Position numbers and translations under genes: made by a program. Below the pieces are notes generated by a model. The model searched no databases and was not told where the DNA came from. It saw only the letters and a program-made list of their open reading frames with translations. DNA of 64,000 bases from Escherichia coli (GTDB taxonomy: Bacteria; Pseudomonadota; Gammaproteobacteria; Enterobacterales; Enterobacteriaceae): the NCBI RefSeq assembly GCF_030013595.1, contig NZ_CP122768.1; one strand, given 5' to 3'. How positions within the stretch are numbered: position 1 is the first letter of the stretch; each line of letters starts with the position of its first letter. Positions 6,829-28,921 of this stretch are shown here, in pieces.

Positions 6829-7665
<837 letters not shown>

Positions 7666-7816
7666 TTAATTTGCATAGACCGTTTTCAGAGTAACCAGCG
7701 CATCGCTACGCCGCCAGCCAAAAACGCTGATAATTAGAAATTAATGATAAACAGGGAGGGATATCAGTGAAAGGCATGAGTCGATGAATGACTGCATGCC
7801 GATAACATGTGACAGG

Positions 7817-8731
7817 TTACGGCACCAGAGCCAGCACCTCAGCTACCCACTGCTGGAAGCCTTTTACATTCAGATCCAATGCCACCTGTACATTGGCTGG
7901 TTTGCCCAGGCAACCGTCGATATCAACCACCGTCGTGCCTGAGGTAAATTCGCCTTGAGTTTCTACCGCGACAAAACACGGCTTGAGAGTGAACAGGTCC
8001 GGGCGCACCAGCCAGGCGATGGCGCAGAGATCGTGCATTCGCAGACCGCTTTGCATACTGCCGCTACGGTAGTGGCTAAACAGGGCGTGGAGCATTTTTC
8101 CGGTGCGATTCAACTCCGGCAAAGTAACGAGATAGTCAGGGGTTAATATTGCCTGATTGGTGACATCCAGACCGCACATGACAATTTCGATGCCGCTACG
8201 GAAGACACAGGCTGCCGCTTCTGGATCGGCAGCGATATTAAACTCGGCGTTTGGTGTGCAGTTGCCGCGACCAGCAGAACCGCCCATGATCACCAGACGG
8301 CGAATATACGGCTTACATTCCGGGCATTGTGAAAGTAACAGCGCAATATTGGTTAACGGGCCGATGGCCACCAGGGTAACGGGCTCTGGCGCACGCATCA
8401 GGGCATCACGAATTGCCAGAAACGCCGGTATACCCAGTGGCTTACGGTTGTGTTCAACAAAGTCATAGCCAGCCATTCCCGATTCACCGTGTACAGATGC
8501 CGCATCGCGCGGCGCACGAACCAGTGGTACGGCAGCGCCCTGGGCAAGCGGAATATCCACATTCCAGAAATGCAGCAGTTGCAGGGCGTTGCGGGTGGTT
8601 TTCTCAACCGAGACATTACCCGCGACGGTGGTCATCAGTTGCAGGTCGAGTTCGGGGGCAAAAATCGCGGCAGCAATGGCGACGGCATCGTCAATGCCGG
8701 GGTCTGTATCGAGGAAGATAGGTAAACGCAT
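7817..8731 (-). CDS. rihC: non-specific ribonucleoside hydrolase
   Basis: 304-aa [22 protein letters not shown]... carrying the nucleoside hydrolase DTDPGIDD motif. Confidence 0.93.
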
Positions 8732-24249: not shown

Positions 24250-24500
24250 TTTTTATTTCTCTTTCAGGTGAATAGATCGTTTTTACTATTTTACCCCGCA
24301 CGAATCATCGTTAAAATCAGATTATAGTGTAGGAATAATTCGCTTTTTACGATCCATTGAAGGATTTGCGTCATCAGTGATGAGATGAGTTTTTGACGGC
24401 TGTAAGCGCTGACGTGTGACCCTAAGCCCTGATAATCATAGCTTAAGGTCAGGATTTCTGAGGGATTAATTAGGAAAAGTAATAATAAAATCGCACTGTG

Positions 24501-25781
24501 CTATAGCTGTTTATTCCAGAGATGCTTGAAAATATCTAATGTTGAGACAACATTGGCAGGCGACATTCGGTTTAATGAGGGTAGAAAGGGATGAGCCTCC
24601 AGGAAGTTGATAAAACGAGTCGCGCTTGCCAACGTCGAATACCGCATTTCATTTGCTTTCTTGTTTCCTGTAAGGTTACAAACAGCCATTGAATAATCAC
24701 GGGCGGAAAATGCACGCCAGACATTATTTCTCACGCCACCACTCAAAAATAACCGCGGCGGCGTATCATAATGAGTCGTTTTCTCGCCGCGTTCTTTCAC
24801 AAAGGAAATATGGCACCGGCCTTGATGAATATGCTGTAAATTAGCCATCAGACAACCGCCTAATATAAAGCACTCGTGATCAAGGTAGTGTTGAATATTT
24901 ATAGAATATGCTTCAGTCAGTGCTCTAACCAGTTCAAAATGGCGATACGCCGGAAGAACCGGTTTCACCAGCATCCCCGGATCGTTTTGATGTAATATCG
25001 CCCGACCATAATCAATATCAAATAAGGTATCACGCCGCATAGTAAGTAACTCCTTGCGTTGTACGTGATGCGCCAGTGTACCTGGAGACAAACGCTCTTC
25101 ATAACTTGATGCATATTGATAATGCGACTCTACCGCTGATGAAGAATAATTTGTTGAAATAGCGACGACTCTACCGCTTTGTTCTTCTGCGGTAACAAGA
25201 CTATAAAGATAGTTGTTACTACAGTTAAACTTTACGCGAAAAGCGCGGGTAGATAGAGAAATATCAGAAGCAGAAGAGTACTGGCAACTTTCTTTATAGT
25301 TTACTTCCCGGGCTAGTTTCATCAACTCACGGTTAAGCCCTGTGCTATTAAGAAGTAATAATTTACGGATATCTGCAAGTGAAGCGCCTTGATCAATCAT
25401 CAATGCTAAATGTGTTCTTCGCGGCGTTGTATTTACATGATCCAGAGTGATAAAAGTTCTGGAACAATGATGACAATACATTCTCCTCTGCCCCTGAGCT
25501 GAATAGCCATACTTTTTCAGAGATGTGCTTCCGCAAGCTGAACATTGTGGAACCAACCCTCTCCATGAATGATTAACACGATTACGATAAATATTAAGAG
25601 ATCGTTCAGATATCACAGGAAACAAGTAACCGCATTCCCGACATAAAATATTTTTGCCTTGTGCAATATAATCCTGGCTATTCAACAACCCCAGGTTTTT
25701 GCATCCTGGTGTTTTGCAACAATCAACATTTACGTTGGTAAACATATTCACTCCCTGCGAATACCCGGATATTATCGTCAT
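24501..25781 (-). CDS. uncharacterised protein: two N-terminal zinc ribbons plus HTH resembling IS1 InsA, fused to a ~250-aa C-terminal domain with transposase-like (RNase H fold) remnants
   Basis: 426-aa ORF. The start is more likely Met13 at 25745 (GGGAG 5 nt upstream), giving 414 aa. CSACGSTSLKKYGYSAQGQRRMYCHHCSRTF...LALMIDQGASLADIRKLL parallels IS1 InsA [32 protein letters not shown]...IIDMAMNGVGCRATARIM. LYSLVTAEEQSGRVVAISTN, LFDIDYG and TEAYSINIQHYL line up loosely with the InsB D..D..E segments. Confidence 0.6.
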   Translation of the reverse strand: MTIISGYSQGVNMFTNVNVDCCKTPGCKNLGLLNSQDYIAQGKNILCRECGYLFPVISERSLNIYRNRVNHSWRGLVPQCSACGSTSLKKYGYSAQGQRRMYCHHCSRTFITLDHVNTTPRRTHLALMIDQGASLADIRKLLLLNSTGLNRELMKLAREVNYKESCQYSSASDISLSTRAFRVKFNCSNNYLYSLVTAEEQSGRVVAISTNYSSSAVESHYQYASSYEERLSPGTLAHHVQRKELLTMRRDTLFDIDYGRAILHQNDPGMLVKPVLPAYRHFELVRALTEAYSINIQHYLDHECFILGGCLMANLQHIHQGRCHISFVKERGEKTTHYDTPPRLFLSGGVRNNVWRAFSARDYSMAVCNLTGNKKANEMRYSTLASATRFINFLEAHPFLPSLNRMSPANVVSTLDIFKHLWNKQL

Positions 25782-25797
25782 ATGTCAAAGAAAAGAA

Positions 25798-25826
25798 CCT
25801 GATTCAATGTGTAACATTGAATCAGG
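25798..25826 (-). terminator. perfect 13-bp stem / 3-nt loop hairpin followed by a T-rich run, downstream of the sulfatase gene
   Basis: cctgattcaatgt-gta-acattgaatcagg. On the minus strand it is followed by TTCTTTTCTTT, between the sulfatase stop (25875) and the next ORF. Confidence 0.6.
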
Positions 25827-25874
25827 CGGGCATGGCCCTGAAAGGCATACATTACATTTATTATGGTTATCAGA

Positions 25875-27368
25875 TTAGCCCCAGGTTACCGCTTCCGGTT
25901 TATCACCTCTGGCTTTCATTAATGAATCATTATCAATATCGGCTTTATACTTTAAGAACTTACCATACATTTGTTTTTCAATGTCTGGATTTTTACCTAT
26001 CTGATTAATGGTCTCAAAACGATCGGTTTTGAGGTTGTATAGATACTTTGGCTTATTGTTACGATCGATGATCATTTTCCAGTCACCATCACGTATCGCC
26101 CATTCGTCGGTTGGATCATCCTGGAATGGCATGTCAATTCCGAAGATTAATGGCTTTTCACGTTTTAGCGCCTTGTTCTCAAGGACAGGAACCAACGATT
26201 CGCCATCAAAAGTCCGGTCCGTCGGTAATTTGAAGTTCATCATTTTCGCCAGCGTAGGCATCCAGTCCAGACCATAAACAGGCGTATCTGAAACCATTCC
26301 CTTTGGAAGATGCTTTCCGTATTTAATAATCGCCGGAACACGGATGCCGCCTTCCCAGAGATTATCCTTGCGACCACGTAATCCATCAGTTTCCCCTGCC
26401 AAATTCAGTTCATAAACTTTACGTGCTTCACGGGTTACTGGGCCGTTATCACTGGTAAAAATAACGATGGTGTTATCTTCTTCACCCATCGCTTTGATTT
26501 TATCCAGTACTTTTCCAACCTGAGCATCCAGATAACTGATGTTGGCATAATATTCTCCTGGACCACGCCAGGGTTTATCCGCCCAGTCGCCATAAAATAA
26601 ATCAGGATGCTGCTTCTGATATTCGCTCATATATTGTGAGTACATGTCGAGGTATTTTTTGGGCGAAGCCAGGGGACTGTGCACTTCGGTAAAAGCGACA
26701 TAAAGGAAGAAAGGCTTACTGTCCTTTTTGTTATCCAACCAGTTGACGACTTCCGAACTGACATACTCACCACTCATTTTATCGGCACGAGGTGTGGGTT
26801 GCCCGTTACGCAACCAGCCCGTTGGATAGACCATGCCAAAACGGGGACGCTCCTTCGCATTATCCAGAGTAGCGTCGGTAACAAAACCCGCCGTATTAAC
26901 CAGTGAGTAATCAAAGCCCATATCTTTTGCCTGCGGCTGATCGGTGCGATCGCCGCCTGCATTCAGATGCAGCTTACCCATCATGGCCGTGTCGTACCCT
27001 TGCGCTTTGAGTAGATTAGCAATCGTGAGTTCATTACGCCCTAATGCCACATCTTTTCCCGTTGGGATCCATGAGCGTATGCCGGTACGAAATGGCATCC
27101 GCCCCGTTAATAACCCCGCCCGCGAAGGAGAACTTAAGGGAGCTGGTGCATAGTAGTCAGTAAATTTGACGCCCTCCTGGGCAAGCCTGTCAATATTGGG
27201 GGTTTTAACGATCTGATGTCCATATGTTGCTAAATCACCATAGCCTAAATCATCCGCCATAATGATGACTAAATTGGGTTGTTTAGTCTCGGCAGCTACG
27301 ACTGGATTAAAAGCATTCCCTGTGCAAACTGCAAGGCCGATCAAACTGGCCATTAATGTTTTCTGCAT
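25875..27368 (-). CDS. periplasmic sulfatase, Ser-type (S-x-P-x-R) formylglycine motif
   Basis: Start at Met13 of the listed ORF (RBS AGGGA) gives 497 aa. Signal peptide MQKTLMASLIGLAVCTGNAFNPVVAA. Sulfatase signatures NLVIIMADDLGYGD and PLSSPSRAGLLTGR, then GKLHL, FTSDNGP. Confidence 0.85.
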   Translation of the reverse strand: MQKTLMASLIGLAVCTGNAFNPVVAAETKQPNLVIIMADDLGYGDLATYGHQIVKTPNIDRLAQEGVKFTDYYAPAPLSSPSRAGLLTGRMPFRTGIRSWIPTGKDVALGRNELTIANLLKAQGYDTAMMGKLHLNAGGDRTDQPQAKDMGFDYSLVNTAGFVTDATLDNAKERPRFGMVYPTGWLRNGQPTPRADKMSGEYVSSEVVNWLDNKKDSKPFFLYVAFTEVHSPLASPKKYLDMYSQYMSEYQKQHPDLFYGDWADKPWRGPGEYYANISYLDAQVGKVLDKIKAMGEEDNTIVIFTSDNGPVTREARKVYELNLAGETDGLRGRKDNLWEGGIRVPAIIKYGKHLPKGMVSDTPVYGLDWMPTLAKMMNFKLPTDRTFDGESLVPVLENKALKREKPLIFGIDMPFQDDPTDEWAIRDGDWKMIIDRNNKPKYLYNLKTDRFETINQIGKNPDIEKQMYGKFLKYKADIDNDSLMKARGDKPEAVTWG

Positions 27369-27387
27369 AATTATTCCCTGATGAAAA

Positions 27388-28149
27388 TTAGAAATCATAA
27401 CCAAGCATATAAATCATTTGATCGCCAAAACCATCGTAGCCCAACTTATTATCGAAATAACGCCACGTCACACTGGCTTTCCAGCGAGGATAGAACTTCC
27501 AGGCCACTGTTAAACCGCCATTTAGCCCATTCCGACCAAATTGTTGTTCCGCATAGGCATCATTTCTGTCCAGTTCTATTTCATTCCAGTTAGATAAAAC
27601 AAATTTTTCGTCAAATAACGTAAAAGGTAATACTGCTGTCCAGCCAACAACATAACCATTCCAGCCATTTGTTTGTCCATATTTGGCTGAGACGTAGTCT
27701 CCAGATTGATTATGTAATCCAATATACGGTTTAAAAAACCCCCATGAACCATTCCTGCCGAGGTAGCCCAAACCATAAAACATATCAAGATCGTCACCCC
27801 ATGAGTTATCCCATTGACCATAGATCTTGCCAAAGAAAGTCATATTGGAGTCAAAGAGTCTGACATGTGTCATAGCAGAAACGGTATGATTACGCCCCGC
27901 TACGGCATGGTTAAGCACATTGCTTTCATAAAATGAGTAAAACTCGGCTTCTTTAAAATTCACACCAAAGTCCGCAGTCACTTTCCATACTTCACCACGA
28001 TGAGTGTTAACGAAGCCACTATTCCAGTCAGCATAACCTGCATTTATTGAGCCAAAGGAACCTTTATATTCTAATGAAGAATATGCAGGAAGGTGATAGA
28101 AAATCGTTGTCAGGGCACACGCAATAAGAAGCCGTCTTTTGGCAGACAT
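27388..28149 (-). CDS. Tsx/OmpK-family outer-membrane channel
   Basis: 253 aa. Signal peptide. Aromatic-rich alternating beta-strand pattern. WNGYVVGW...FKPY motifs resemble Tsx/OmpK. C-terminal beta-signal ...MLGYDF. Sits 19 nt upstream of the sulfatase gene on the same strand. Confidence 0.65.
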   Translation of the reverse strand: MSAKRRLLIACALTTIFYHLPAYSSLEYKGSFGSINAGYADWNSGFVNTHRGEVWKVTADFGVNFKEAEFYSFYESNVLNHAVAGRNHTVSAMTHVRLFDSNMTFFGKIYGQWDNSWGDDLDMFYGLGYLGRNGSWGFFKPYIGLHNQSGDYVSAKYGQTNGWNGYVVGWTAVLPFTLFDEKFVLSNWNEIELDRNDAYAEQQFGRNGLNGGLTVAWKFYPRWKASVTWRYFDNKLGYDGFGDQMIYMLGYDF

Positions 28150-28665
28150 ATAATATGAATATGCTCTCCATTCATTGTTTTTATGGTTCCATAGAAATCA
28201 ATACATCAGATAATTCATTTTGATTAAGAACGACTCAGAAAGTATATTTAAAGGTGAATGGCAAAGCGTGATGGAGATCGCAGATTACTTTTACCCCCGG
28301 GTGTGGAGGTATCGTGTTTCAAAAAGTGTGTCTATTTTAAATATCACTCATTGATTTATAGACATTTTTTCCTTATAAAAAAACACTAAATTCTGTACAA
28401 GAATTATTTTGTATCTTCTACTACTTTCTCCAGTAATAACTCACCTTTCAGGCATAACTTAAATCTGCTTGTTCATAATCTCAATTTTTGTAAATGAAAA
28501 GGCACATAAGAGTTAAAATAAACAATGATCTAAAGATTAATTACGCAAAAATGCGAGGCGTCTTCAGGATTAGAATCGATAAAACAGAATGGGTTAAAGA
28601 GAGCGATATAATAGCGGCGGGTGCTTGAGGCTGTCTGTCTCAGGCATTAGCTGAACGGCAGATAG

Positions 28666-28720
28666 AGAAAAGCCCCGAGTGATATTTTACTATCAACCCG
28701 AGGCCCCCTATATGCAGAAC
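28666..28720 (-). ncRNA. sokC: Sok-type antisense RNA of the hokC locus
   Basis: Antisense to the mokC start. The minus-strand sequence GUUCUGCAUAUAGGGGGCCUCGGGUUGAUAGUAAAAUAUCACUCGGGGCUUUUCUC has a 5' single-stranded tail, a long stem-loop (CCUCGGG-U-UGAUA / UAUCA-CUCGGGG) and a U-tail. Coordinates were transferred from my recollection of the K-12 annotation. Confidence 0.6.
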
Positions 28721-28921
28721 ACATGTAGAGTGCCTCTTACTGACCGTAAGGTCAAGGAGAAGAGAGCAATGAAGCAGCATAAGGCGATGATTGTCGCCCT
28801 GATCGTCATCTGTATCACCGCCGTAGTGGCGGCGCTGGTAACGAGAAAAGACCTCTGTGAGGTTCACATCCGAACTGGCCAGACGGAGGTTGCTGTTTTC
28901 ACGGCTTACGAATCCGAGTAA
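28712..28921 (+). CDS. mokC: regulatory overlapping reading frame of hokC (mok)
   Basis: MQNTCRVPLTDRKVKEKRAMKQHK... is in frame with and encompasses hokC, as in hok/mok/sok loci. Confidence 0.7.
   Translation: MQNTCRVPLTDRKVKEKRAMKQHKAMIVALIVICITAVVAALVTRKDLCEVHIRTGQTEVAVFTAYESE
28769..28921 (+). CDS. hokC: Hok-family small membrane toxin
   Basis: 50 aa: MKQHKAMIVALIVICITAVVAALVTRKDLCEVHIRTGQTEVAVFTAYESE. Single TM plus the conserved Hok C-terminus. Confidence 0.9.
   Translation: MKQHKAMIVALIVICITAVVAALVTRKDLCEVHIRTGQTEVAVFTAYESE

Follow-up and report, generated by a model that had tools for sequence, protein, structure and literature searches.

Which function can be assigned to a gene that begins like an IS1 transposase, continues with a domain matching no known family profile and lies intact behind a sulfatase gene? 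This question is raised by a locus of Escherichia coli found in a stretch of 64,000 nucleotides (the window) of contig NZ_CP122768.1 from assembly GCF_030013595.1. The gene in question, called here the target gene, occupies positions 24501..25745 on the minus strand and is the last of a three-gene set. An original prediction, made from the window alone, had hesitated between a single-frame IS1-like transposase, a domesticated transposase regulating the adjacent sulfatase operon, and a decaying relic. The evidence presented below establishes that the protein derives from a transposase of IS1/IS256-like origin, that it is kept by selection and that its gene is tightly linked to particular catabolic and scavenging genes. 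The domesticated regulator is the best supported of the three readings: with a probability of roughly 0.55, the protein is an immobile and catalytically degenerate transposase derivative regulating the module formed by a Tsx-like porin gene, a sulfatase gene and, in most genera, a sulfatase maturase gene (anSME). The best reading of the family as a whole is that of an undescribed group in which domesticated transposases serve as regulators of individual operons.

A single immobile copy under purifying selection

The open reading frame at 24501..25781, with its stop codon at 24501-24503, is intact as had been predicted, and the range of 414 to 426 residues first given for its product can be narrowed. 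The start in RefSeq and in all homologues is the second ATG, at 25745, yielding the 414-residue form used for numbering throughout. The first ATG, at 25781 (426 residues), comes straight after the T-run of a terminator-like hairpin and is unlikely to serve as the start. A Shine-Dalgarno sequence AGGGAG (25751..25756, minus strand) is located 5 nt upstream of the ATG at 25745, within the string TATTCGCAGGGAGTGAATATG common to Salmonella through E. coli.

Of 5426 complete E. coli genomes, 1171 carry the gene body, each as one chromosomal copy and never on a plasmid. Inverted repeats flanking the gene or its island were searched and none was found, nor was any target duplication. The original prediction had proposed a copy count, a single syntenic copy always next to the sulfatase being the sign of a domesticated regulator; a single syntenic copy is indeed what is observed, and the sulfatase gene stands upstream in 27 of the 29 species loci described below. 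The possibility of an active or recently active single-frame IS1-like transposase, possibly with the sulfatase or a 5'-nucleotidase as cargo, can draw on the transposase-type N-terminal module and fold, on a four-gene module that is found at nhaA, at mglC-sanA and at other places of the chromosome, on a pair formed by a 5'-nucleotidase and a homologue whose neighbours differ between two Vibrio species, and on the name 'IS1 family transposase' given to relatives in some databases. It is contradicted by the single copy in every carrier, by the bare ends of the gene and island, by a synteny with nhaA that is stable over at least 21 species, by an incomplete DDE triad devoid of conserved Asp, and by full-length IS1 and IS1249 profiles scoring far under their cutoffs (27 versus 100 and 18 versus 300, respectively). 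This possibility is already largely refuted and retains very little credit.

The third reading, a functionless relic of an old insertion, fares no better. The gene is missing from about 78% of E. coli genomes, and its evolution is 3-7 times as fast as that of its neighbours (dN, the rate of non-synonymous substitution, is 0.095 for the target gene, 0.018 for the sulfatase gene and 0.006 for nhaA), as a relic might. Its ratio of non-synonymous to synonymous rates (dN/dS) is nevertheless 0.10-0.13, against 0.03 for the sulfatase gene and 0.015 for nhaA, which clearly indicates purifying selection even if the gene changes faster than those around it. Moreover, intact full-length orthologues are found in more than 12 genera, the ribosome-binding site of the gene is conserved across genera, and many residues are invariant over 48 sequences reaching down to about 20% identity. 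The idea of a relic is thus refuted by selection and conservation, and hardly any weight can be left on it.

The alleles of the 1171 carriers fall into three classes, with 32 at ≥99% identity, 198 at 95-99% and 941 at 80-90%; the class of the window itself (≥99%) is therefore a rare one (32/1171). Between the window allele and the common B2-type allele (locus L002), the synonymous divergence dS reaches 0.93 for the target gene, 0.63 for the sulfatase gene and 0.35 for nhaA. This deep divergence within a species suggests either that the allelic lineages of the island are old or that it was exchanged with other Escherichia species.

An N-terminal module shared with InsA

Two Cys4 zinc ribbons had been recognized in the N-terminal region, and both are borne out: the eight cysteines are invariant or nearly so, not only in 26 close orthologues but also in the whole set of 48 sequences. 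Ribbon 1 (25632..25721, minus strand; residues 9-38) carries C10/C15 and C35/C38 in the motif NxCKTxGCxNxG...CxxCG, and the predicted model places beta strands at 26-29, 32-35 and 41-43 in its region. Ribbon 2 (25449..25544, minus strand; residues 68-99), with C68/C71 and C91/C94, is of the IS1 InsA / IS1595 type. It is followed by a helix-turn-helix (HTH) region (25287..25424, minus strand; residues 108-153), modelled as three helices (108-119, 123-130 and 134-153) with a predicted local distance difference test score (pLDDT) of 95-97, which matches LuxR-type DNA-binding domains.

The resemblance to InsA withstands a proper alignment. The NCBIfam profile NF050000, describing the N-terminal zinc-binding domain of IS1 and IS1595, matches residues 68-99 with 31.8 bits for a cutoff of 28, and comparison of the family profile with IS1 InsAB' by hhalign aligns residues 64-145 with residues 4-88 at 95% probability (E 3e-8). 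With one score above its cutoff and the other significant, the likeness is real, but for ribbon 2 and the HTH only. The InsA-like architecture announced in the original prediction has accordingly to be restricted to these two elements: since InsA has one ribbon, ribbon 1 is an extra, family-specific module. Pfam Zn_ribbon_InsA matches 11 of 21 family members. In one relative (P0080) the match to the IS1 profile runs on into beta1-beta3 of the following domain (profile positions 1-130 of 199), and its BLASTP alignment with InsAB' is limited to ribbon and HTH. A search of the PDB sequences with the target protein returned only chance matches to C2H2 fingers.

A remodelled RNase H-like domain

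The remainder of the protein (24504..25274, minus strand; residues 158-414) has a predicted fold of the ribonuclease H-like (RNase H-like) type found in DDE transposases and integrases. A first structure model, built from 26 sequences, had a pLDDT of 74; a second one, from 57 sequences including the relatives of Vibrionaceae and Orbaceae, reached a pLDDT of 91.3 and a predicted template modelling score of 0.92. In the predicted structure, strands beta1 (161-173), beta2 (178-187) and beta3 (193-198) precede helix alpha1 (224-236), beta4 (258-260), alpha2 (263-280), beta5 (283-288) and alpha3 (292-307), an order which is the canonical one, and a four-stranded beta insertion (311-357) and C-terminal helices (364-413) come after alpha3. 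The modelled core superposes at 2.8-3.0 Å on active integrases and on Mos1. With the first model, Tn5 (10.5) and ISCth4 (10.4) were matched, and the Foldseek matches to the PDB were weak (best E 1.8e-3) and all of RNase H-like fold. Structure prediction thus settles the nature of the domain, which has the catalytic-core fold of the DDE transposase / retroviral integrase superfamily.

At the sequence level this domain stands apart. No profile of Pfam, NCBIfam, PHROGs or PADLOC matches it; searches of Pfam, PADLOC and PHROGs with the whole protein yield only zinc-ribbon or weak transposase matches. The profile and structure searches proposed at the outset thus provide a predicted fold and no known family for the C-terminal domain. 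No sequence similarity to InsB, of which loose traces had been perceived, is detectable in this region, the comparison of its profile with IS1 InsB by hhalign being not significant (probability 0.25%).

The candidate catalytic acids do not survive either. D161, D243/D245 and E278, put forward as possible remnants of a D..D..E motif, are not conserved in the family, where E291 is the sole universally acidic column of the C-terminal domain (100% D/E). This residue opens the helix that follows beta5, the place of the catalytic Glu in integrases. At the other two positions, the 48 family members show no conserved Asp on beta1 or after beta4: beta1 has a conserved T166 (94% T/S) and beta4 is followed by K261-P262. 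Of the three acids that define the superfamily, on beta1, after beta4 and on the helix after beta5, only E291 is retained, and two would thus be absent throughout the family, given positions assigned from secondary structure and conservation. Invariant polar residues are nevertheless found in the domain, namely R238, H269, H290 (92% His), E291, N199, Y211 and W343. A C-terminal metal site made of C292, C298, C311 and H312 was also considered and rejected because these residues vary outside Enterobacteriaceae, to which their conservation is confined.

This pattern leaves some room for an enzyme acting on DNA or RNA with a site remodelled around H269, H290, E291 and R238, which might be a site-specific nuclease or recombinase, for instance one switching the operon, or a nuclease feeding nucleotide scavenging. 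The strict conservation of these residues, the close superposition on active integrases and Mos1, and a neighbourhood devoted to nucleotide and nucleoside scavenging agree with such an activity. However, no conserved acid occupies the beta1 and beta4 positions required for two-metal catalysis, no invertible segment or flanking inverted repeat was seen around the promoters or the target gene, and the target protein is cytoplasmic while the scavenging enzymes are periplasmic. An enzymatic role is for these reasons regarded as improbable.

Conserved linkage to sulfatase and nucleotide-scavenging genes

A further part of the case for a regulator associated with a given operon comes from the gene neighbourhood. 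In the window, the target gene follows a gene for a periplasmic sulfatase of 497 residues (25875..27368, minus strand; Pfam Sulfatase 1.2e-58, also annotated by RefSeq, with an SSPSR motif), which follows in turn the first gene of the module, encoding a Tsx/OmpK-like outer-membrane channel (27388..28149, minus strand; Pfam Channel_Tsx 2.9e-14, 'OmpK' in RefSeq). A survey using one genome per species returned 29 loci, distributed over Escherichia, Salmonella, Citrobacter, Klebsiella, Kluyvera, Pseudescherichia, Kosakonia, Yokenella, Phytobacter, Atlantibacter, Franconibacter, Scandinavium and Buttiauxella. The sulfatase gene, detected by TBLASTN, is upstream on the same strand in 27 of them, the other two being a locus cut by a contig end and one without sulfatase. 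In 21 of the 29 loci, the radical-SAM maturase anSME ends 25-35 bp before the target gene, and at least 21 adjoin nhaA. The four-gene module is also encountered elsewhere, as between mglC and sanA in Scandinavium, and more divergent paralogous modules exist at 32-43% identity. The maturase gene was lost in Escherichia and in some Klebsiella, Kluyvera and Phytobacter. A DNA-binding domain and a target-gene neighbourhood conserved across taxa, which characterize operon-specific regulators, are hence both found here, and the island encodes no other candidate regulator.

A hairpin followed by a T-run, resembling an intrinsic terminator (25787..25827, minus strand; 14-bp stem, 3-nt loop), separates the sulfatase gene from the target gene. 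It follows the sulfatase gene in nearly all loci and is kept, with compensatory changes in the stem, in all those lacking anSME. In Salmonella, Citrobacter, Kluyvera, Kosakonia and Yokenella it stands between the sulfatase gene and anSME, with the genes for porin and sulfatase on one side and those for anSME and the target protein on the other. The conservation of this hairpin implies that the genes downstream are probably expressed at a lower level; it is probably an attenuator.

The same association extends to distant relatives. A profile search against 1.8 billion cluster representatives gave 465 matches at E<1e-3, many of them limited to the ribbon, among which about 40 are full-length relatives of 350-530 residues with the same architecture, in at least 16 subclades. 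They include proteins of Vibrio, Photobacterium, Enterovibrio, Grimontia, Thaumasiovibrio, Salinivibrio and Gilliamella. Relatives from Vibrionaceae, from Orbaceae and from a second locus of E. coli and Salmonella share 20-26% identity with the target protein. The gene of Gilliamella and that of another organism diverge from deoB-deoD-nupG, after which Gilliamella has add, a 5'-nucleotidase gene, cdd and deoA. In Vibrio scophthalmi and Vibrio vulnificus it is located 27-33 bp downstream of a gene for a 5'-nucleotidase of 520 residues, in neighbourhoods otherwise unrelated. A second paralogue, encoded between metL and metF and divergent from a 5'-nucleotidase gene, is carried by Salmonella, Citrobacter and about 1180 E. 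coli genomes; it has 376 residues and about 26% identity, and lacks the HTH segment (7001..8131 of locus L050, E. coli KE47; also L049 and L051). The neighbourhoods of two further relatives contain no informative genes. This is, then, a wider and undescribed gammaproteobacterial family consistently tied to nucleotide/nucleoside-scavenging and sulfatase genes.

Such neighbours could alternatively point to a non-regulatory accessory factor for exported hydrolases, built on a recycled transposase scaffold and acting as an anSME partner or as a chaperone or targeting factor of the sulfatase and 5'-nucleotidase. The short distance to anSME in 21 of the 29 loci, the equally short one to the 5'-nucleotidase gene in Vibrio, the periplasmic hydrolases encoded next to the gene and the paralogue without HTH are all compatible with this explanation. 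It accounts poorly for the fact that all recognizable modules of the protein (zinc ribbons, HTH, RNase H-like fold) are of nucleic-acid-binding types, and for the retention of the gene in Escherichia and Klebsiella after the loss of anSME. The relatives of Gilliamella, Salmonella and Citrobacter are in addition encoded by single divergent genes, those of Orbaceae beside cytoplasmic deo enzymes. An accessory role appears unlikely, even if it is the least so of the explanations opposed to regulation. A function as sulfatase maturase itself was ruled out: Pfam and NCBIfam show no match to radical-SAM (CxxxCxxC) and SPASM domains or to formylglycine-generating enzyme, the fold is RNase H-like, and in most genera the true anSME is encoded by a separate gene upstream.

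Candidate promoter and operator elements

A k-mer conservation scan of the promoter upstream of the Tsx-like gene found little. A footprint derived from a MAFFT alignment of 14 species reveals two conserved blocks. The first one, the CRP-like TGnGA-N6-TCAC, precedes a conserved -10 element, TA(a/t)ACT, by about 20 nt, a class II geometry. It defines in the window a putative module promoter (28241..28284, minus strand), in which the CRP-like site TGCGA-N6-TCACG (28267..28284) is centred about 41 bp upstream of the start expected from TATACT (28241..28246). The assignment of this site to CRP follows from its consensus and should be taken as putative.

The second block lies about 50 bp further upstream and has the consensus AAA(A/G)CAACAT-N5-TGACAC in other genera; the Escherichia version (28312..28337, minus strand), AAAATAGACACACTTTTTGAAACACG, has diverged. 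When the porin gene is inverted, as in Salmonella and some Citrobacter and Klebsiella, each of the two divergent promoters is equipped with both elements. A scan of 408 kb of loci gave 24 matches to the upstream motif for 1.6 expected, and 21 of these matches are in the promoter regions of tsx-like or sulfatase genes. The motif was derived from part of the scanned sequences; the second copies of the divergent arrangements, one per promoter, played no part in its derivation. Intergenic regions in the loci of the relatives also contain CRP-type sites. That of the metL-metF paralogue has a perfect one, TGTGAGAGTAATCACA, and a conserved inverted repeat, CAACGA-N10/11-TCGTTG, is observed just upstream of the start of this paralogue.

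Proposed mechanism and its weak points

On the basis of these observations, the N-terminal ribbon and HTH module would bind a specific DNA sequence as InsA does, this sequence being no longer the end of an insertion sequence (IS) but a host operator in the promoter or promoters of the porin/sulfatase (anSME) module. CAACAT-N5-TGACAC, about 50 bp upstream of the class II CRP-like site, would be the best candidate. The remodelled RNase H-like domain would serve in oligomerization, in the sensing of an effector, or in both, and transcription reading past the conserved terminator behind the sulfatase gene would supply the target gene with a low level of expression. Binding of this InsA type at host promoters is the most economical mechanism, and we judge it slightly likelier to be correct than not. 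A bolder and rather doubtful version holds that the former active site has become an effector-sensing pocket (T166, R238, H269, H290 and E291). It would found a new class of bacterial one-component regulators made from full-length DDE transposases, coupling a nucleoside, nucleotide or sulfated-metabolite signal to the CRP-dependent promoters of the sulfatase/Tsx-like, 5'-nucleotidase and deo operons.

The original prediction is thus supported in part. For the best of its readings, the domesticated regulator of the sulfatase operon, the fold, the linkage in 27 of 29 loci, the selection and the positions of the relatives speak in favour, and regulation itself is deduced from them. Several points count against it. 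The target gene is the last of its operon and stands behind a terminator, whereas regulators are more commonly placed elsewhere. The candidate operator has diverged in Escherichia and, in the motif scan, was not found in the modules that diverge most, and the link by which this motif would be the operator of the target protein is purely circumstantial. The paralogue found between metL and metF has kept its 5'-nucleotidase neighbour without an HTH, so that the conserved function may not depend on this segment. The loss of the first two catalytic acids relies on positions that were set by secondary structure and conservation rather than by residue-level superposition, and the invariant polar residues could mark a non-canonical active site instead of a sensor. 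Finally, searches of the literature on STM0034-38, on sulfatases associated with Tsx and on domesticated bacterial transposases found no paper on this gene or family.

The pair formed by anSME and the homologue of the target gene in Salmonella is presumably SL0037-SL0038. In a study of SsrB, the two-gene unit SL0037-SL0038 (STM0036) was 4-fold down in an ssrB mutant.

The island and its surroundings

The gene order in the window is dnaK, dnaJ, IS186, hokC/mokC/sok, the three-gene island, nhaA, nhaR and fimbrial genes. The island (24490..28538) stands in place of 112 bp of the mokC-nhaA spacer of K-12, as determined by blastn. These 112 bp (L013 3138..3249) are unrelated to the island and the junctions have no repeats. 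Because the module adjoins nhaA in most Enterobacteriaceae, the K-12 state looks like a deletion or a replacement and not like an empty insertion site. The sok antitoxin RNA of hokC/mokC (28619..28771, plus strand; Rfam RF01794, 118.8 bits) adjoins the promoter region of the island; it was the only hit of the Rfam scan, which detected no riboswitch in the 5' untranslated region.

The sulfatase shows a peculiarity of its own. Its formylglycine position is Ser (SSPSR) in the Escherichia sulfatases (L015 and L016) and Cys (CSPSR) in every other genus (L018-L042), and the Ser-type Escherichia loci have also lost the adjacent anSME. A Ser-type sulfatase normally requires a maturase of the AtsB type. 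Given the loss of anSME, the Escherichia enzyme may therefore rely on AslB or YdeM, stay unmodified, or have changed its function.

In Salmonella (L003/L018) and Citrobacter (L020 and L022), the island is larger and contains in addition two arylsulfate sulfotransferase genes and a gene for a 5'-nucleotidase of 520 residues, placed in the nhaA island of Salmonella beside the Tsx-like gene. This arrangement hints at the joining of sulfate-ester and nucleotide scavenging in one locus.

The annotation of the family deserves revision. It is widespread, being present in Enterobacteriaceae (including ST131/B2 E. coli and Salmonella), Vibrionaceae and Orbaceae, and it is poorly annotated, its main domain having no Pfam family. 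Its members are variously labelled hypothetical, 'cytoplasmic protein', 'IS1 family transposase' or 'lactate dehydrogenase'. The last name is attached, in NCBI and UniRef, to several Vibrionaceae homologues (P0236-P0241) and to Salinivibrio H39 and H47; since no sequence or fold feature of these members backs it, it is probably a propagated misannotation. At the very least, the present analysis corrects the annotation of the target gene, which is neither an insertion sequence nor a pseudogene. Should the regulatory role be real, it would offer an entry point into the control of a sulfatase/porin module of gut enterobacteria that is conserved but unstudied, and into that of periplasmic 5'-nucleotidases.

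Comparison with known systems

The closest known relative of the N-terminal part is InsA/InsAB' of IS1, with which the target protein shares the C4 ribbon and the HTH (residues 64-145 versus 4-88). InsA is a sequence-specific DNA-binding repressor, and the ribbon and HTH module can therefore be considered a proven transcription-factor module. The two proteins differ by the extra N-terminal ribbon of the target protein and by their C-terminal halves: InsB has about 145 residues, compared with about 260 for a domain bearing a beta insertion and a helical tail and devoid of detectable sequence similarity to it. The target gene, a single copy, lacks the frameshift arrangement of IS1, its ends and a complete DDE triad. 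The full-length transpos_IS1 profile covers only its own positions 1-83 of 199 for 27 bits (cutoff 100), so that the features of IS1 are present in the ribbon and HTH, and absent as regards the catalytic domain and mobility. The IS256/Mutator group (ISCth4, and zinc-ribbon variants such as IS1249) differs likewise, the target protein having no catalytic Asp and its gene being immobile. The IS1249 profile NF033544 scores 18.5 for a cutoff of 300 and the ribbon profile NF048018 26.2 for 27, which does not amount to a zinc-ribbon variant of IS256; in the relatives, the matches of IS1249-type profiles are confined to the N-terminal 40-78 profile positions. By the criteria of these two families themselves, the target protein is outside both IS1 and IS256.

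As regards the proposed function, a parallel exists with CytR and DeoR, the pathway-specific co-regulators that act with CRP at tsx and deo promoters. The theme is the same, with a Tsx-like channel, deo genes, a 5'-nucleotidase and CRP-like sites in the associated promoters, but CytR belongs to the LacI family, whose fold is unrelated to that of the target protein.

As regards the proposed origin, eukaryotes offer well-documented cases in which a full-length DDE transposase was turned into a transcription factor, and no bacterial case was found in the literature searched. The plant factors FHY3 and FAR1, derived from Mutator-like elements, provide a conceptual precedent, in which a transposase with zinc-finger DNA binding was kept at full length as a sequence-specific regulator while its core was inactivated. 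The target protein differs from them in being bacterial, embedded in an operon and of IS1/IS256-like origin, with no sequence relationship and with a regulatory role that is predicted. If this role is true, the family would constitute a clean bacterial model of a transposase becoming a regulator of its host.

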